Positions 32,984 through 36,999 of a stretch of DNA of 64,000 bases are shown in pieces. Source of the stretch: a virus (taxonomy: Duplodnaviria; Caudoviricetes); the IMG/VR virus record IMGVR_UViG_2706795618_000001, positions 1-64,000 of that record; one strand, 5' to 3'. The position numbers were made by a program, and so were the translations under genes. The notes under the pieces were generated by a model. The model was not told the origin of the DNA, did no database searches, and saw nothing but the letters and a program-made list of their open reading frames with translations. Numbering within the stretch: the first letter of the stretch is position 1; every line of letters begins with the position of its first letter.

Positions 32984-33045
32984 TTGCGGCCTTTTCGTCT
33001 AGTGAGCTATAACTGTCTTACCGGGGCAGGTACCAGACCAGCCCC
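32984..33045 (+). promoter_or_regulatory. Cassette promoter and leader, copy 1
   Basis: TTGCGG-N18-TATAAC with GTCTAGTGAGC; leader GGGGC-A-GGT-ACCAG-ACC-A-GCCCC. Confidence 0.8.
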
Positions 33046-33065
33046 CGAGCCCCGAGGGGGACGTT

Positions 33066-33305
33066 ATGGGTCAGACGGTCAAGATCGCCAGCCGCGCGCG
33101 TCGGCACGGTGGGGGTCGTGCCCGGATCATCGCCGCGATGCGGCACTGCCAAGATCCCCAGGTCTCCGAGGACCGGCCGGGTGTCGTGGAATTCCGCGGC
33201 CTGGACGACCACGGCAAGGGGCTGGTGATCCTGGTCCGCGACGGCGACCGTCGGCCGAACGAGCTGGTGGTGTTCCACGTCCACCCGGTCGCGTTCTACC
33301 GCTGA
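33066..33305 (+). CDS. Small RelE/BrnT-like toxin-fold protein (tentative)
   Basis: ASRARRHG, IIAAMRH, G.DDHG..L.I, VVFHVHP pattern like small actinobacterial toxin RNases. Confidence 0.45.
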   Translation: MGQTVKIASRARRHGGGRARIIAAMRHCQDPQVSEDRPGVVEFRGLDDHGKGLVILVRDGDRRPNELVVFHVHPVAFYR

Positions 33306-33317
33306 CCGGCCCAGGCC

Positions 33318-33346
33318 AACACCCCGGGGATTCCCCGGGGTGTTTT
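33318..33346 (+). terminator. Cassette 1 terminator
   Basis: AACACCCCGGGG-ATT-CCCCGGGGTGTT then TT. Confidence 0.8.
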
Positions 33347-33387
33347 GCTATCCGGCGCTGGACATTTCCACGCATTTGGCCAGCTCG

Positions 33388-33449
33388 TTGCGGGTAGGCC
33401 GTCTAGTGAGCTATAAACGAGTCACCGGGGCAGGTAGCAGACCAGCCCC
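33388..33449 (+). promoter_or_regulatory. Cassette promoter and leader, copy 2
   Basis: TTGCGG-N18-TATAAA, GTCTAGTGAGC; leader loop AGCAG. Confidence 0.8.
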
Positions 33450-33471
33450 CCGAGGGGAAGGAACCCCCACC

Positions 33472-34419
33472 ATGGCCGGAACAACCACCTACATCGCCAC
33501 CGACCCCAATGGCACCGAGCACACCCGCGCCAGCCGAACGATGGCCTACACCCACGCCCTGCTGGTCAGCGACGACGACGCCCGCACGTGGTACGCCCGC
33601 AGCTGGCACACCAGCGAGCGGACCGCCAACGACGCCCTGAGCTCCAACGGCAGCTACTCACCCAGCGGAATCCGTCGCCTGGTGGAGGTCACCGAGAAGC
33701 CCAAGGGCCGCCAGCCCAAGGCCAAGCTGACCCCGCTGTCAGCGGTGGGTTCGACGGGTGACGCGATCCTGGACGCGGCCGTCGCAGCCGCTGCCGACGA
33801 CGCCACCACCGAGGGGGAGGAGACCCCACAGCAGCGCCGCAACCGCAAGGCGCGGGAACGGCGCGCGGCCAAAAAGCAGGCCACGGGGGAGGTGGTGGCC
33901 ACGGTGACGCCGGAACCCACGGTCGAGCAGGAGGCCGAGGTCCGGGTGGTGTCATTCGCTGACGACTGGGACGCGGCCCCCGTCGGTGCCCGGCCGGTCG
34001 AGGACGACGTGCCCGCGGCCGACGACGGCCAGGAGGTGGCCGACCTGGAGAGCCAGCCCGAGGAACCGGAGGCCGACGACACCACCACGGTGGAGCCGGT
34101 AGAGGAGGGGCAGGCCGACGACACGGAGAGCCAGCCGGCCGAACCGAGCGCGTCGGAGGACGACCAGCCGGAAGTGGTGGAGGTCGAGGACCAGCCGGAA
34201 CCCGAGACGGCCGACACCGACGAGGCCATCAGCGCCGCGCTGGAGGTCACCCCCGAGCAGATCGAGGAGGCCAAGGCCCAGGTGGTCAAGGGGGAGCGGT
34301 GCCCGGGATACAAGATGGCGGTTCCCGACAACGGCAAGCGTCGCGCGGAGTGCCCGGTCTGCGGTCACAGCGTCAAGCGCTACGCCAAGTCGGGGTTGCT
34401 GGGGTCGCATCGCGCGTAG
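33472..34419 (+). CDS. Acidic low-complexity protein with C-terminal Zn-finger-like domain
   Basis: Asp/Glu-rich middle; GERCPGY...CPVCGHSVKRYAKSGLLGSHRA. Confidence 0.75.
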   Translation: MAGTTTYIATDPNGTEHTRASRTMAYTHALLVSDDDARTWYARSWHTSERTANDALSSNGSYSPSGIRRLVEVTEKPKGRQPKAKLTPLSAVGSTGDAILDAAVAAAADDATTEGEETPQQRRNRKARERRAAKKQATGEVVATVTPEPTVEQEAEVRVVSFADDWDAAPVGARPVEDDVPAADDGQEVADLESQPEEPEADDTTTVEPVEEGQADDTESQPAEPSASEDDQPEVVEVEDQPEPETADTDEAISAALEVTPEQIEEAKAQVVKGERCPGYKMAVPDNGKRRAECPVCGHSVKRYAKSGLLGSHRA

Positions 34420-34421
34420 GC

Positions 34422-34475
34422 CCGACGTAGAACGGGGCCGGTGGGGTAACGACCACCGGCCCCGTTCTACGTCGG
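34422..34475. terminator. Cassette 2 terminator (23-bp perfect stem)
   Basis: CCGACGTAGAACGGGGCCGGTGG-N8-CCACCGGCCCCGTTCTACGTCGG. Confidence 0.75.
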
Positions 34476-34499
34476 CACGCTGGTCATCGCCGCTGGTAG

Positions 34500-34562
34500 T
34501 TGCGGCACGGCCGTCTAGTGAGCTATACCTTTCGGTACCGGGGCAGGTGACGGACCAGCCCC
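34500..34562 (+). promoter_or_regulatory. Cassette promoter and leader, copy 3
   Basis: TTGCGG-N18-TATACC, GTCTAGTGAGC; leader loop GACGG. Confidence 0.8.
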
Positions 34563-34582
34563 CAAACCCGAGAGGGGTACCA

Positions 34583-35320: not shown

Positions 35321-35536
35321 ATGGACACCATCACCGTCTGGACCCTGATCATCGTCGGCGACAACGAGGACAGCACGTCCGTGTCGCTGCACCCCAGCGA
35401 GGCCGCAGCGCTGGGCCACCTCCGCGATTTGTACGACATCCCGGAATGGGTCGAGGACGTGGTGGATGCGGTCAACAACGCCCCCGGGGATGAGGTGCGG
35501 TTTGTGATGCTCGACAGTCACGACCACTACTGCTAA
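35321..35536 (+). CDS. Small acidic protein
   Basis: GGAGAGG RBS; 71 aa between promoter 4 and a hairpin. Confidence 0.7.
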   Translation: MDTITVWTLIIVGDNEDSTSVSLHPSEAAALGHLRDLYDIPEWVEDVVDAVNNAPGDEVRFVMLDSHDHYC

Positions 35537-35549
35537 GCCCCCACCTGGC

Positions 35550-35579
35550 CGAACCCCCGCGCAACCGTGCGGGGGTTCG
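35550..35579 (+). terminator. Cassette 4 terminator-like hairpin
   Basis: CGAACCCCCGC-N8-GCGGGGGTTCG. Confidence 0.65.
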
Positions 35580-35583
35580 CTCG

Positions 35584-35644
35584 TTGTGGCCCTTGGGTGA
35601 ACCGAGCTACGGTCACCACCGACGGGCAGGCATTAGGCCAGCCC
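35584..35644 (+). promoter_or_regulatory. Diverged cassette promoter and leader lacking the GTCTAG box
   Basis: TTGTGG-N18-TACGGT; leader GGGC-A-GGC-ATTAG-GCC-A-GCCC. Confidence 0.65.
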
Positions 35645-35666
35645 CCAACCCGATAGGGGAATTGTC

Positions 35667-35939
35667 ATGTCAGACAACGTCACCGCCACACCTGGCAACT
35701 CCGACGGCGATTACGGAAAGTTTGCCGTTTTGTTCTCCCACGCCTCCAGCGCGGTCTATGACGAGCTGGTCACCACGCACCGGTTCTCCAGCGATGTCGG
35801 CGCGCGGGTGTTCGGCGACAAGATCGCCTACGTCCAGGGGGTGGAGTACGAAGTGATGGAGCTGACGGCCGACGGGTGGCGTAGCGCGCGCGGGGAATCG
35901 CCCGTCGAGGTGATCCGTCGTCGTTGGCAGGGTCGGTGA
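35667..35939 (+). CDS. Hypothetical protein
   Basis: AGGGGA RBS after the diverged leader. Confidence 0.7.
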   Translation: MSDNVTATPGNSDGDYGKFAVLFSHASSAVYDELVTTHRFSSDVGARVFGDKIAYVQGVEYEVMELTADGWRSARGESPVEVIRRRWQGR

Positions 35940-36202
35940 GCGGCCGCCGGCCGCGGGGCGGCGTGATGGTGCACCCCAAGGTCGAGGACTTTGCCAGCCA
36001 AAGTGAGGTGCTGGTCCAGTACACCGACGACGGGCCGGATTCGGTGGGGCTCCGCTCGTTCTTCGCGTACTGGCTGGCCGGGAACATCGGGCCGCGGAAA
36101 GATCAGTACGGGGTTCACGGCCAGGTGTTCGTCGTGCCCCCGGCGACATTCGCTGCTCGCCAGGCCATTCTGGGCGGGACCGTACGGGAATGGGTACCCT
36201 GA
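35936..36202 (+). CDS. Hypothetical protein
   Basis: GTGA overlap; alternative start ATG 35966. Confidence 0.55.
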   Translation: MSGRRPRGGVMVHPKVEDFASQSEVLVQYTDDGPDSVGLRSFFAYWLAGNIGPRKDQYGVHGQVFVVPPATFAARQAILGGTVREWVP

Positions 36203-36332
36203 CCCGGGCCGTCTGCTCTGTCGTCGCGTCCGTCAATAGTGGGCATTCGACGCGCCAGGCTGTGGTTCGATTGGCCCCCAACACGGTGGGGCGCACCGCC
36301 AACACCGACAGAACGAGAGGTGCGGGTGGTTC

Positions 36333-36854
36333 GTGAAGTGTCCAGATTGCGGGTCGGCCATGACATATGGCGATGGCGACGGCGTGCACTACACCGAGGG
36401 GTACTGGTGGTGCCCGACGTGCGGCAACGAGATTCACCCCGACGACGACGGAACAGAGGAGAAGGAAGCGCGGGCGATGACGCCAGCAGAATTCCGCATT
36501 ACGCGCGACTACCTGGGCCTGCCACCCGTGTGGCTGGCCGAGCGGCTCAATGTGCGTGAGCGCACGCTGTCGCGCTGGGAGCACGGCGGTGCCCCCATCC
36601 CCCCGGGCGTGATGGAGGAGTTGGCCGCCATCGCGGAACTGACGGCGCGGCGGGTGGATTCGCTGGTCGAGGAGCTGGAGGCCGGCGGTGAGCTCGTGAC
36701 GTACCGGACGGATGAGGACTACCGGTCGTCGGGGATCGCCGACGGGCGGGTGTTCCCGGCATCGTGGCACCGCGCCATCGCGGCCCGCGTGATGGATGCG
36801 TGCCCCAACGTGGTGGTGGTGTACAGCGCCGACCAGGCGGCTGACGCCAGCTAG
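36333..36854 (+). CDS. Zn-ribbon plus XRE HTH protein
   Basis: CPDC...CPTC, then MTPAEFR..RDYLGL...LAERLNV..RTLSRWEHG. Confidence 0.8.
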   Translation: MKCPDCGSAMTYGDGDGVHYTEGYWWCPTCGNEIHPDDDGTEEKEARAMTPAEFRITRDYLGLPPVWLAERLNVRERTLSRWEHGGAPIPPGVMEELAAIAELTARRVDSLVEELEAGGELVTYRTDEDYRSSGIADGRVFPASWHRAIAARVMDACPNVVVVYSADQAADAS

Positions 36855-36870
36855 CACCACGGCGTGATGT

Positions 36871-36897
36871 CGGCCCCCACCGGTATGGTGGGGGCCG
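36871..36897 (+). terminator. Cassette 5 terminator-like hairpin
   Basis: CGGCCCCCACC-GGTAT-GGTGGGGGCCG then TT. Confidence 0.7.
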
Positions 36898-36939
36898 TTC
36901 GTCGTACTGGGAGCCTTTATCCACGTTTGGCCTGGTCAC

Positions 36940-36999
36940 TTGTGGCCGGATGTCTAGTGAGCTATAACTGACATCACCGGGCAGGTACCAGACCAGCCC
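36940..36999 (+). promoter_or_regulatory. Cassette promoter and leader, last copy
   Basis: TTGTGG-N17-TATAAC, GTCTAGTGAGC; leader GGGC-A-GGT-ACCAG-ACC-A-GCCC. Confidence 0.8.

Follow-up and report, generated by a model that had tools for sequence, protein, structure and literature searches.

Leader hairpins of the accessory-gene cassettes of mycobacteriophage Bipper as the probable RNA motif of an Aca2-type DNA/RNA switch

The control of acr-aca2 operons by Aca2 in Pectobacterium phage ZF40 is reportedly the subject of a study by Birkholz et al. (Nature 2024). The binding site of Aca2 is an inverted repeat within the promoter, and another repeat is found in the 5' UTR; no binding to this second repeat of ZF40, IR2, was seen in vitro with DNA (PMC6765145), and its action at the RNA level was established later (PMC13551039). 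A dimer of Aca2 attaches to two hairpins in the 5' UTR and occludes the ribosome-binding site, the published RNA motifs being termed the proteo-motif and the actino-motif; with a single HTH domain, Aca2 discriminates between its DNA site and an RNA site that differs from it (PMC13551039). A single Aca2 can serve several neighboring operons, and RNA motifs are also found between operon genes (PMC13551039).

The window analyzed here, a stretch of 64,000 nt, is DNA of mycobacteriophage Bipper (cluster Y). About ten accessory-gene cassettes of Bipper share a module of ~85 nt, which runs from a SigA-like promoter through a hairpin (7 to 8 bp, with an A.A mismatch), a C-run, and a G-rich Shine-Dalgarno sequence to the start codon, with constant anatomy and spacing in all copies (Table 1). 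Judging from the sequence, this hairpin probably serves, in the 5' UTR, as the RNA motif of an Aca2-type switch that controls these cassettes at both the DNA and RNA levels, and the array is most likely a large, ten-operon example of the recently published phage switch rather than a new kind of element. Like the ZF40 system, Bipper has an Aca2-family HTH gene in the last position of a small operon, a palindrome between the -35 and -10 boxes, and a structured RNA motif at a fixed distance from the start codon, which would lie directly past the predicted transcription start site (TSS). As in Aca2 systems, the motifs also lie ahead of neighboring operons and between genes, and the cargo is variable. 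However, Bipper and the other cluster Y phages have 10 to 12 sites across two genome regions, whereas up to three clustered sites are mentioned for published Aca2 (PMC13551039). Unlike published Aca2, the Bipper protein has an extra N-terminal zinc ribbon; as a further difference, the Bipper hairpin has a conserved A.A mismatch; and unlike the cargo of acr-aca2 operons, that of Bipper is not known as anti-CRISPR.

Table 1. Features of the Bipper promoter-hairpin array, with positions in the window
Feature	Position	Strand	Details
Perfect palindrome GTCTAGAGAGCTAGAC	32338..32353	+	Overlaps the -10 box of the 83-aa gene 32362-32613, which is leaderless
Module 1 promoter-like region	32984..33013	+	TTGCGG 32984-32989, 18-nt spacer, TATAAC 33008-33013; operator-like GTCTAGTGAGCTA 32997-33009
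Hairpin copy 1, GGGGC-A-GGT-ACCAG-ACC-A-GCCCC	33023..33045	+	ATG 33066, 79-aa BrnT-like toxin gene
Leader 3' half (example)	33046..33068	+	C-run, G-rich Shine-Dalgarno (possible hairpin 2), ATG; layout alike in all copies
Terminator hairpin past cassette 1	33319..33343	+	Has a U-run
Module 2 promoter-like region	33388..33417	+	GTCTAGTGAGCTA at 33401-33413
Hairpin copy 2, loop AGCAG	33427..33449	+	Start codon 33472, 315-aa gene
Comparable terminator hairpins, other cassettes	About 34423-34475, 35100-35121, 35550-35579, 38239-38273	+	
Module 3 promoter-like region	34500..34529	+	GTCTAGTGAGCTA at 34513-34525
Hairpin copy 3, loop GACGG	34540..34562	+	Start codon 34583, 168-aa DUF7457 gene
Module 4 promoter-like region	35241..35270	+	GTCTAGTGAGCTA at 35254-35266
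Hairpin copy 4, loop ACCAG	35280..35302	+	Start codon 35321, 71-aa gene
Module 5 divergent promoter-like region	35584..35613	+	TTGTGG, 18 nt, TACGGT; operator-like part degenerate (GTGAACCGAGCTA)
Hairpin copy 5, GGC/GCC variant, loop ATTAG	35624..35644	+	Heads operon 35667-35939, 35936-36202, aca2-like gene
Aca2/YdiL-family HTH gene, N-terminal zinc ribbon, 173 aa	36333..36854	+	Candidate trans-acting partner
First strong terminator-like hairpin past module 5	36871..36897	+	Closes cargo-cargo-aca2 operon
Module 6 promoter-like region	36940..36968	+	GTCTAGTGAGCTA at 36952-36964
Hairpin copy 6, loop ACCAG	36979..36999	+	Start codon 37023, 399-aa gene

The Bipper hairpin has the consensus GGG(G)C-A-GGY-(4-6 nt)-RCC-A-GCCC(C) and is present in ten copies in the genome, six of which are in the window. 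An earlier note on this DNA had described six leader hairpins, one of them with GGC/GCC instead of GGT/ACC, and both the copies with their loops and this exchange were recovered by reading the sequence and by a core search: GGGCAGGY-N5-RCCAGCCC matches at 33024, 33428, 34541, 35281, 35624, and 36979, six matches against 0.04 expected from shuffles. Further copies lie past the window end at genome positions 66924, 68408, 70889 (with a 4-nt loop), and 71375. A covariance model found the same ten sites, all on the plus strand and only upstream of genes, and nothing else in the whole Bipper genome at E<=1. All ten hairpins are on the coding strand, begin 10 to 11 nt past a -10-like box, in agreement with the distance of about 10 nt given in the earlier note, and are followed by an ATG 19 to 23 nt further on. 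Four other cluster Y phages carry 10 to 12 copies each; the minus-strand copies in Hilltopfarm, Nadezda, and Typha track minus-strand genes, so that the orientation is that of the downstream gene every time. Some copies have no promoter and sit between the genes of a single operon, 19 to 25 nt before start codons. Rfam 15 contains no family matching the leader hairpin.

A comparison of 37 distinct copies from cluster Y shows no variation in six of seven stem pairs, in the mismatched 3' A, or in the G that ends the loop, while the flanks and loops drift; no stem contains a G.U wobble. Every one of these copies is more stable than its dinucleotide shuffles (mean z of -2.96, all below -2). The loops, which had been described as freely variable, do differ in sequence and length (ACCAG, GACGG, ATTAG, ACCG, and GACCAG, with 4, 5, and 6 nt tolerated), but in cluster Y they always end in G and begin with a purine. 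Of the two opposed A residues that had been called fixed, the 3' A is, whereas the 5' A is replaced by a C, still unpaired, in four distinct Typha-group copies (five genomic sites). Within cluster Y, the closing pair is the only one that covaries. In a wider set from actinophages and prophages, the outer stem (GGGC/GCCC, GGUC/GACC, and GACC/GGUC) and the inner stem (GGU/ACC, GGC/GCC, GGGC/GCCC, and GGGG/CCCC, with one U.G wobble) also change in a compensatory manner, and the A.A mismatch is kept, although it may widen to 1x2. Over 52 distinct hairpins, four of seven pairs changed on both sides, with a covariation score of 0.232 versus 0.079 in shuffled alignments (0/500), so that the covariation sought in a larger alignment was found; since pairing was called for in choosing this set, its percentage paired is not an independent measure. 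When the outer pair was counted without requiring pairing, there were 44 G..C, 7 T..A, and 0 T..C cases. The fixed strand and start-codon distance, the promoter-less copies, the loops of 4 to 6 nt, and the covariation all point to a structured RNA element, as the earlier note had suggested.

The promoters of the modules are predicted at the -10-like hexamers. A strict consensus promoter scan gave no match at the modules, since TATAAC does not have T as its last base. The spacing of 10 to 11 nt would put the TSS 2 to 4 nt ahead of the hairpin, which is thus expected at the 5' end of the transcript. Between -35 and -10, a palindrome-like GTCTAG-N4-CTA is found in five of the six modules of the window. 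GTCTAGAGAGCTAGAC is the symmetric form of this operator and has no hairpin downstream, and related palindromes occur in phage G001, Kitasatospora, and Gilgamesh. This promoter palindrome might belong to another regulator, with its perfect copy found at the 83-aa gene (32362-32613). Further downstream, a second hairpin at the Shine-Dalgarno sequence was predicted in 37/37 distinct leaders, but with an energy no better than that of shuffles (mean z of -0.26), and in the model alignment only 73.5% of its cells are paired, with little covariation. This putative hairpin at the ribosome-binding site, on which an Aca2-type mechanism would draw, thus finds no support beyond base composition. Since every cassette is closed by a terminator hairpin of its own, antitermination, one of three roles proposed for the leader hairpin, is unlikely. 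A lambda-type nut site (boxB) was likewise rejected, on these terminators and on the variable loop sequence and length with no conserved GNRA-like pentaloop.

Bipper encodes one Aca2-family HTH protein, and its gene lies within the array, which favors protein binding among the three proposed roles. The protein matches Pfam HTH_31 and falls below the cut-off for Aca2_YdiL (19.4 versus 23.8 bits). As a single sequence, it matches PDB Aca2 7ezy with an E value of 1.3e-3, and the profile of its family matches the Aca2 chains 8w35, 7vjo, 7ezy, and 7b5j over nearly the full length with E values of 5e-9 to 1e-7. PF08965 (Aca2_YdiL) is matched by 7 of 9 family members. The operon contains hairpin 5, a 90-aa gene, an 88-aa gene, and the aca2-like gene in last place, and the two cargo genes are probably cotranscribed with the latter. 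The same order, cargo and then aca2, is found in Typha, a Kitasatospora locus, a metagenome contig, and Streptomyces phage Gilgamesh.

Protein homology alone fetched six loci, of which L273 and L274 are near-identical, leaving five distinct ones. Hairpins of the Bipper family are present in all five. In the Kitasatospora locus (L276) and the metagenome contig (L278), a variant hairpin that keeps the A.A mismatch heads the operon containing the aca2-like gene, and Gilgamesh has a similar arrangement, its variant being parsed by eye with a weak model match (12.3 bits, E value of 0.22). No Bipper protein other than the Aca2-like one is common to all protein-fetched loci. In addition, the IMG/VR phage G001, found via the hairpin, encodes an Aca2-like homolog between its two modules. 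Among other hairpin-bearing contigs, G003 and G004 (84 to 85% complete) have no detectable Aca2-family member, and G005 (73% complete) has none by single-sequence search alone. Among actinophages and prophages that are only distantly related, protein and hairpin stay together although cargo genes and promoters differ; shared prophage ancestry rather than function could also account for this co-occurrence.

By analogy with published Aca2, a dimer of the Aca2-like protein would bind the mRNA at the hairpin, and perhaps at the Shine-Dalgarno mini-hairpin too, and keep ribosomes off, while the promoter palindrome would be bound as DNA by the same protein or by the small protein encoded at 32362-32613. 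As the net effect, the cassettes would be expressed in a burst on entry and then be shut off in both transcription and translation, and the promoter-less copies would allow gene-by-gene translational control within operons. The cargo genes have no match among known anti-defense families. To our knowledge, the usual laboratory host has no CRISPR system, and anti-CRISPR is therefore not a likely cargo function.

The layout also recalls the SAS/ESAS of cluster K phages, where a SigA-like promoter with an inverted repeat is followed by a conserved leader element shortly before the start codon, repeated ahead of 7 to 19 nonstructural genes that lie between the lysis and integration cassettes as well as at the right genome end, and where some genes have the leader element without a promoter. 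However, the two show no sequence similarity. The 13-bp SAS GGGATAGGAGCCC is absent near start codons in the window, where its single 2-mismatch match (1.76 expected) lies on the minus strand in the structural region, and membership in this system was rejected on the absence of the consensus. Those leaders of Adephagia that were inspected are A/C-rich and have no GC hairpin, unlike those of Bipper, and the authors of the ESAS work found no support for RNA pairing, whereas the Bipper-type stems covary.

A protein-independent 5' stabilizer, the third of the proposed roles, is not the preferred reading and stays as a rival that we consider rather unlikely. The leaders of ompA and T7 gene 10 are examples of such action, and a hairpin 2 to 4 nt from the likely TSS that is clearly more stable than shuffles would suit it, as would contig G003, where three paralogous promoters are each followed at equal distance by an unrelated GC hairpin, keeping structure and not sequence. 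However, the invariant stem pairs, 3' A, and loop G of the 37 cluster Y copies amid drifting flanks and loops, with no G.U wobble, indicate sequence-specific recognition, and a stabilizer accounts poorly for a destabilizing A.A mismatch conserved across genera, for promoter-less copies within operons, and for the tight link to an Aca2-family gene. Stabilization and protein binding are not mutually exclusive. The imperfect inverted repeat at about +3 to +26 could instead be a double-stranded DNA operator, where a dimeric repressor, Aca2-like or other, acts as a roadblock, a reading with precedents in the first interpretation of ZF40 IR2 and in the stoperators of cluster A phages. The position directly downstream of the promoter, the HTH protein encoded nearby, and the conserved stem sequence agree with it, but it is improbable given a half-site spacing that varies from 4 to 6 bp and a mismatch side that can gain a base, since dimeric HTH proteins rarely tolerate such variation. 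Symmetric positions covary within one genome, with GGT/ACC and GGC/GCC side by side, a one-sided C-to-U change yields a wobble pair, the A.A asymmetry is conserved in constant orientation relative to the gene, and promoter-less copies lie 19 to 25 nt ahead of start codons, all of which speak against a DNA operator, as does the course of ZF40 IR2, unbound as DNA in vitro (PMC6765145) and later found to act as RNA (PMC13551039).

Equally doubtful is a reading in which another partner uses the hairpin as its RNA site and the Aca2-like protein acts on the promoter palindrome only. This partner could be another phage protein, such as the 83-aa product encoded at 32362-32613 or the BrnT-like ribonuclease from cassette 1, or a host factor. 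Two readers are conceivable because palindrome and hairpin share no sequence, and the hairpin-bearing contigs in which no Aca2-family gene was detected (G003 and G004, and G005 by single-sequence search) fit this reading; against it, the Aca2-like protein is the only one shared by all hairpin-carrying protein-fetched loci, of which only two have the BrnT-like protein and none has a match to the 83-aa protein, and published Aca2 reads DNA and RNA sites with one HTH domain (PMC13551039). A mainly genomic role, either as a REP/BIME-like mobile palindrome or as a recombination site for gene shuffling in the manner of PeSL cassettes, appears very improbable beside the proposed Aca2-type switch. Chloroflexota, cyanobacteria, and other groups contain, as a REP-like repeat in high copy number, a near-identical 21-nt hairpin, GGGCAGGC-ACAAG-GCCAGCCC, that shares the A.A mismatch and has an ACNAG loop, but the flank (C/G)TAC, present in >92% of the REP-like copies, follows no phage copy, and a search of the Bipper genome with PF01797 (Y1/RAYT transposase) gave no match. 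Membership in the REP/RAYT system, which calls for a GTAG/CTAC flank and a Y1 transposase, was rejected on these two grounds, and the resemblance may be due to chance; the phage copies, unlike REP/BIME repeats, are tied to promoters and start codons. Promoter-early stem-loop (PeSL) cassettes were reportedly described in T4-type phages by Arbiol et al. in 2010. As in Bipper, where promoter-gene-terminator cassettes lie in a hypervariable region with cargo that differs among relatives, they occupy a hyperplastic region as a series of small accessory genes, every one of which has a stem-loop and a copy of the repeated promoter; their stem-loop, however, is a 3' terminator, whereas the Bipper hairpin is a 5' leader with a conserved mismatch and a link to a regulator. 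A genomic role would also leave the fixed start-codon distance, the kept mismatch, and the compensatory changes unexplained. In both systems the repeats likely favor gene shuffling, which in Bipper may be a side effect of their presence.

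The window is from mycobacteriophage Bipper of cluster Y (KU728633; 77,832 bases) (PMC4939774) and has 98% identity over the region to Mycobacterium phage Cracklewink (Bippervirus). The hairpin array is flanked by the lysis cassette and a tRNA-Met gene on one side and by leftward integrase and repressor genes on the other. The usual site of accessory genes in temperate mycobacteriophages lies between the lysis cassette and the integrase and repressor genes. Within the window, the core GGGCAGGY-N5-RCCAGCCC has six matches versus 0.04 expected, and this pattern count recovered all six hairpins listed in the earlier note. 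The whole Bipper genome contains 10 copies, one of which has a 4-nt loop. A covariance model trained on 37 distinct cluster Y leaders recovered the same ten sites in Bipper, all on the + strand, with no other match at E<=1. Cracklewink, Typha, Hilltopfarm, and Nadezda carry 10 to 12 copies apiece. Every cluster Y copy points the same way as the gene downstream of it, and minus-strand copies stand in front of a minus-strand gene.

Each hairpin forms part of a module of fixed anatomy, and the distance from the -10 box, given in the earlier note as about 10 nt, agrees with the measured gap (see the table). The promoter of this module is a putative one, its TATAAC hexamer lacking the final T, and a strict sigma-70 scan called no promoters. 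A strong hairpin lies 3' of every cassette gene, and the array is thus a series of promoter-leader-gene-terminator units; a strict terminator scan called a single terminator-like site, located elsewhere. In Rfam searches, the tRNA alone exceeded the gathering thresholds, a permissive search of positions 32970-37040 returned just chance miRNA-like matches on the terminator hairpins, and four look-alike loci gave no match. A literature search with hairpin sequence strings also gave no match.

Features of the hairpin array and of related loci (window positions unless a locus is named)
Feature	Position	Description
Hairpin 1 copies	33023, 33427, 34540, 35280, 35624, 36979	stem with A.A mismatch
Palindrome	32338-32353	perfect, GTCTAGAGAGCTAGAC; over the -10 (TAGACT) of the 83-aa gene; symmetric form of the operator-like sequence of cassette promoters
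83-aa gene	32362-32613	second candidate regulator of the array; apparently leaderless; no Pfam match
tRNA-Met	32891-32964	adjoins the hairpin region
Promoter-like part of module		TTGCGG, 18-nt spacer, TATAAC; conserved GTCTAGTGAGCTA within the spacer
Leader of module		hairpin 10-11 nt past TATAAC, then C-run and G-rich Shine-Dalgarno
Start codon		19-23 nt downstream of the hairpin
aca2-like gene	36333-36854 (+)	173 aa
Corndog aca2-like gp76	L283, 2989-3396	homologue of the Bipper Aca2-like protein
REP/BIME-like repeat	L147-L266 (bacterial MAG contigs); L068, L087, L094, L113, L116 (IMG/VR)	GGGCAGGCACAAGGCCAGCCC then (C/G)TAC

In every copy, hairpin 1 is more stable than its dinucleotide shuffles (mean z of -2.96), and the folding energy of the whole leader, with z of just -1.0 to -2.2, is weak taken alone. 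Within cluster Y, only the closing pair covaries, being U-A in 27 rows and C-G in 8 with no intermediates, which bears out the compensatory change from GGT/ACC to GGC/GCC first noticed in a single copy. The remaining six stem pairs do not vary, nor do the 3' A of the mismatch and the final base of the loop, while loops and flanks drift; contrary to the earlier note, the loop does not vary freely, its final base being G in all cluster Y copies. An invariant stem and mismatch with drifting loops suggests that the sequence is recognized as well as the fold. By itself, the variation in cluster Y is thin evidence for structure. A wider family supplies further forms. In contig G002, each of four paralogous promoters of another type has a hairpin behind it, and one of these hairpins, GACC-A-GGC-ACCAG-GCC-A-GGUC, has a compensated outer stem with the mismatch and loop unchanged. 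Prophages of Mycolicibacterium, one of Kitasatospora, and contigs from metagenomes contribute GGUC/GACC outer stems and GGGC/GCCC and GGGG/CCCC inner stems, together with one U.G wobble, loops of 4 to 6 nt, and a mismatch that is at times widened to A/AA.

When 52 distinct hairpins were aligned with MAFFT, both-sided changes were found in four of the seven pairs, and the covariation score exceeded those of all 500 shuffles and of all slid controls. Because this set had been chosen with a pairing filter, the outer pair was also counted without any pairing requirement, which gave G..C 44 times, T..A 7 times, G..T twice, and C..G once, with four unpaired combinations and no T..C. Covariation in a larger alignment, on which the earlier note had made its reading depend, is present, and the wider family settles that the hairpin is a structure. 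A loop of variable length, a wobble arising on one side only, an orientation that never changes, a set distance to the start codon, and promoter-less copies between genes of an operon all fit an RNA element and not a duplex operator. A second hairpin, pairing the C-run with the Shine-Dalgarno sequence, is predicted in every leader, but just 73.5% of its cells are paired, it is no better than in composition-matched shuffles, and it is possible only. A generic descriptor (4 bp, mismatch, 3 to 4 bp, loop) gave as many matches in reversed controls as in the real sequence and was thus not specific.

Exact-pattern scans of IMG/VR and bacterial genomes returned mostly chance matches and a REP-like family of look-alikes, and the additional matches to a stricter pattern were chance only (L267 and L268). 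The REP/BIME-like repeat and the phage hairpin are nearly identical, down to the A.A mismatch. It is a high-copy repeat, with dozens in one Chloroflexota MAG, and is also present in Caldilineaceae, cyanobacteria, Methylobacter, and Acidobacteriota. Frequently an inverted GTAG-GGGCAACC-CTTGT-GGTTGCCC accompanies it, and in one MAG the repeat forms inverted pairs of ~106 nt. The repeat is flanked by (C/G)TAC, a flank absent from the phage copies, and no Y1 transposase was found in Bipper. Because of the CTAC flank and the high-copy, BIME-like arrangement, the reading of this family as a widespread homologue was set aside. The likeness is probably a coincidence. In contig G003 (L146), three paralogous promoters, ACTGTGCTACAGTAT, at positions 2129, 4063, and 10872 each have, equally far downstream, a GC hairpin of their own (one canonical, one CCCCGG-AGAGG-CCGGGG, and one with tandem G.A pairs), after which come CUCCCGAGGAG and a start codon. 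The contig, 85% complete, yielded no Aca2-family gene.

When every ORF of Bipper was compared with the other contigs that bear the hairpin, one protein recurred, the product of the aca2-like gene, which has a zinc ribbon and then an HTH domain. Among solved structures, its best relatives are Aca2 and YdiL. A profile of nine family members matches four Aca2 structures over nearly the full length (E of 5e-9 to 1e-7), and seven of the nine match Pfam Aca2_YdiL. The gene lies inside the array, where it closes the unit opened by the fifth hairpin copy, and the next strong terminator hairpin is not reached before 36871-36897; this gene order is that of an acr-aca operon. Six loci were retrieved by identity to the Bipper protein alone, and two of these (L273 and L274) are nearly identical, leaving five distinct loci. 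All of them have hairpins of the same family (at least eight in a Mycolicibacterium prophage), and no Bipper protein other than the Aca2-like one is shared by all. The operon holding the aca2-like gene in the Kitasatospora locus and in a metagenome contig (L278) has in its leader a sequence variant of the hairpin that retains A.A. The same arrangement is seen in Streptomyces phage Gilgamesh, in which the model match is weak (E of 0.22) and the variant was parsed by eye. Promoters vary by lineage, with a palindrome recurring between -35 and -10 in each. The gene and the hairpin co-occur across distant actinophages while the cargo changes. No Aca2-family member was detected in two incomplete hairpin contigs, G003 and G004, or in a single-sequence search of a third, G005. 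The aca2-like gene of the Typha group (133 aa; Typha L010 8211-8715) lacks the zinc ribbon that is fused in Bipper; its start is overlapped by a 38-aa ORF, which may represent a remnant or a split form.

The earlier note proposed a structured RNA element serving as a protein-binding site, an antitermination signal, or a 5' stabilizer. The structured element itself is real, and its reading as RNA is supported by covariation, orientation, and the fixed start-codon distance. Antitermination was dropped because every cassette retains its own terminator hairpin. The leader was also considered as an extension of Shine-Dalgarno pairing with 16S rRNA, and this reading was rejected: relative to the Shine-Dalgarno sequence, the complementary stretch is on the wrong side. 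The hairpin may additionally stabilize the 5' end, which is compatible with an Aca2-type role. In layout and genome position, the closest described mycobacteriophage analogue is the SAS/ESAS system of cluster K, but it has no sequence in common with the Bipper module, and the Adephagia leader is unstructured. Cross-cluster immunity to Nadezda, a cluster Y phage, is reported for a lysogen of Yasnaya_Polyana, a phage of cluster K4 (PMC12699233).

The Bipper array is most likely a switch of the published Aca2 type in the form of an unusually large regulon. In Pectobacterium phage ZF40, Aca2 binds an inverted repeat within the promoter; the second repeat, which is less symmetric and located in the 5' UTR, was not bound as DNA in vitro (PMC6765145). 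Aca2 RNA motifs occur as "proteo-" and "actino-" types; in aca2 operons, they begin directly after the transcription start site, the position of the start codon is conserved, up to three neighboring operons can be served by one Aca2, and motifs are also found between genes inside operons (PMC13551039). The Bipper module, its motif compared by description only, agrees with this account point by point on a larger scale, its transcription start site being a predicted one. Transcription would start just upstream of the hairpin, an Aca2-like dimer on the leader RNA would block translation, and the promoter palindrome would be occupied by the Aca2-like protein or the small protein of the 83-aa gene, the joint outcome being an early burst of expression followed by shut-off. 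The usual laboratory host of Bipper is not known to have a CRISPR system. If this reading is confirmed, dual DNA/RNA control of the Aca2 type would extend beyond one to three anti-CRISPR operons and could cover about ten unrelated accessory cassettes in a CRISPR-free host. The reading gives a concrete, testable explanation for a repeated control module of a cultivable, tractable phage whose host, M. smegmatis, is a safe model organism.

The Aca2 reading also points to a possible explanation of further mycobacteriophage repeats. A homologue of Bipper's Aca2-like protein (36% identity; E of 8e-8) is encoded by some 35 phages of cluster O, and these phages carry more than 30 copies of a 17-bp dyad repeat, TGTTCGGNNNCCGAACA, "of unknown function" (PMC4351075). 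In Corndog (NC_004685; L283, the reverse complement of 44530-50883), the repeat lies upstream of gp82 and gp80, ~25 to 30 nt before the start codons. Its core, TTCG..CGAA, is the same as that of the Aca2 inverted repeats of ZF40 (PMC6765145), and it is possibly the target of gp76. A role of Aca2-family proteins as general master switches of actinobacterial-phage accessory cassettes, acting genome-wide on mRNA leaders, is a tentative and rather doubtful extension; if true, long-unexplained mycobacteriophage repeats could be DNA or RNA targets of this family, with the cluster Y hairpin and the cluster O repeat as candidates, and Bipper would have a ten-operon posttranscriptional regulon unrelated to CRISPR.

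The cargo genes, nearly all of which are without known function, encode a BrnT-like toxin, a DUF7457 protein, a DUF732 lipoprotein-like protein, and several proteins without a family; as a putative coregulated set, they would be candidates for anti-defense, defense, or host-takeover roles. No obvious candidate for an antitoxin gene adjoins the BrnT-like gene. The proteins of cassettes 2 and 3 are otherwise different and share a cysteine end of ~40 residues (34290-34416 and 34960-35086), GERCPGY...CP.CG.SVKRYA...SHR, which looks like a common C-terminal zinc-ribbon module. Bipper (33066-33305) and Cracklewink have the BrnT-like gene on the + strand, and the Typha group has it on the - strand (L010 5010-5258); either way the leader module precedes it on the gene's own strand (model match in Typha at L010 5256-5301, minus).
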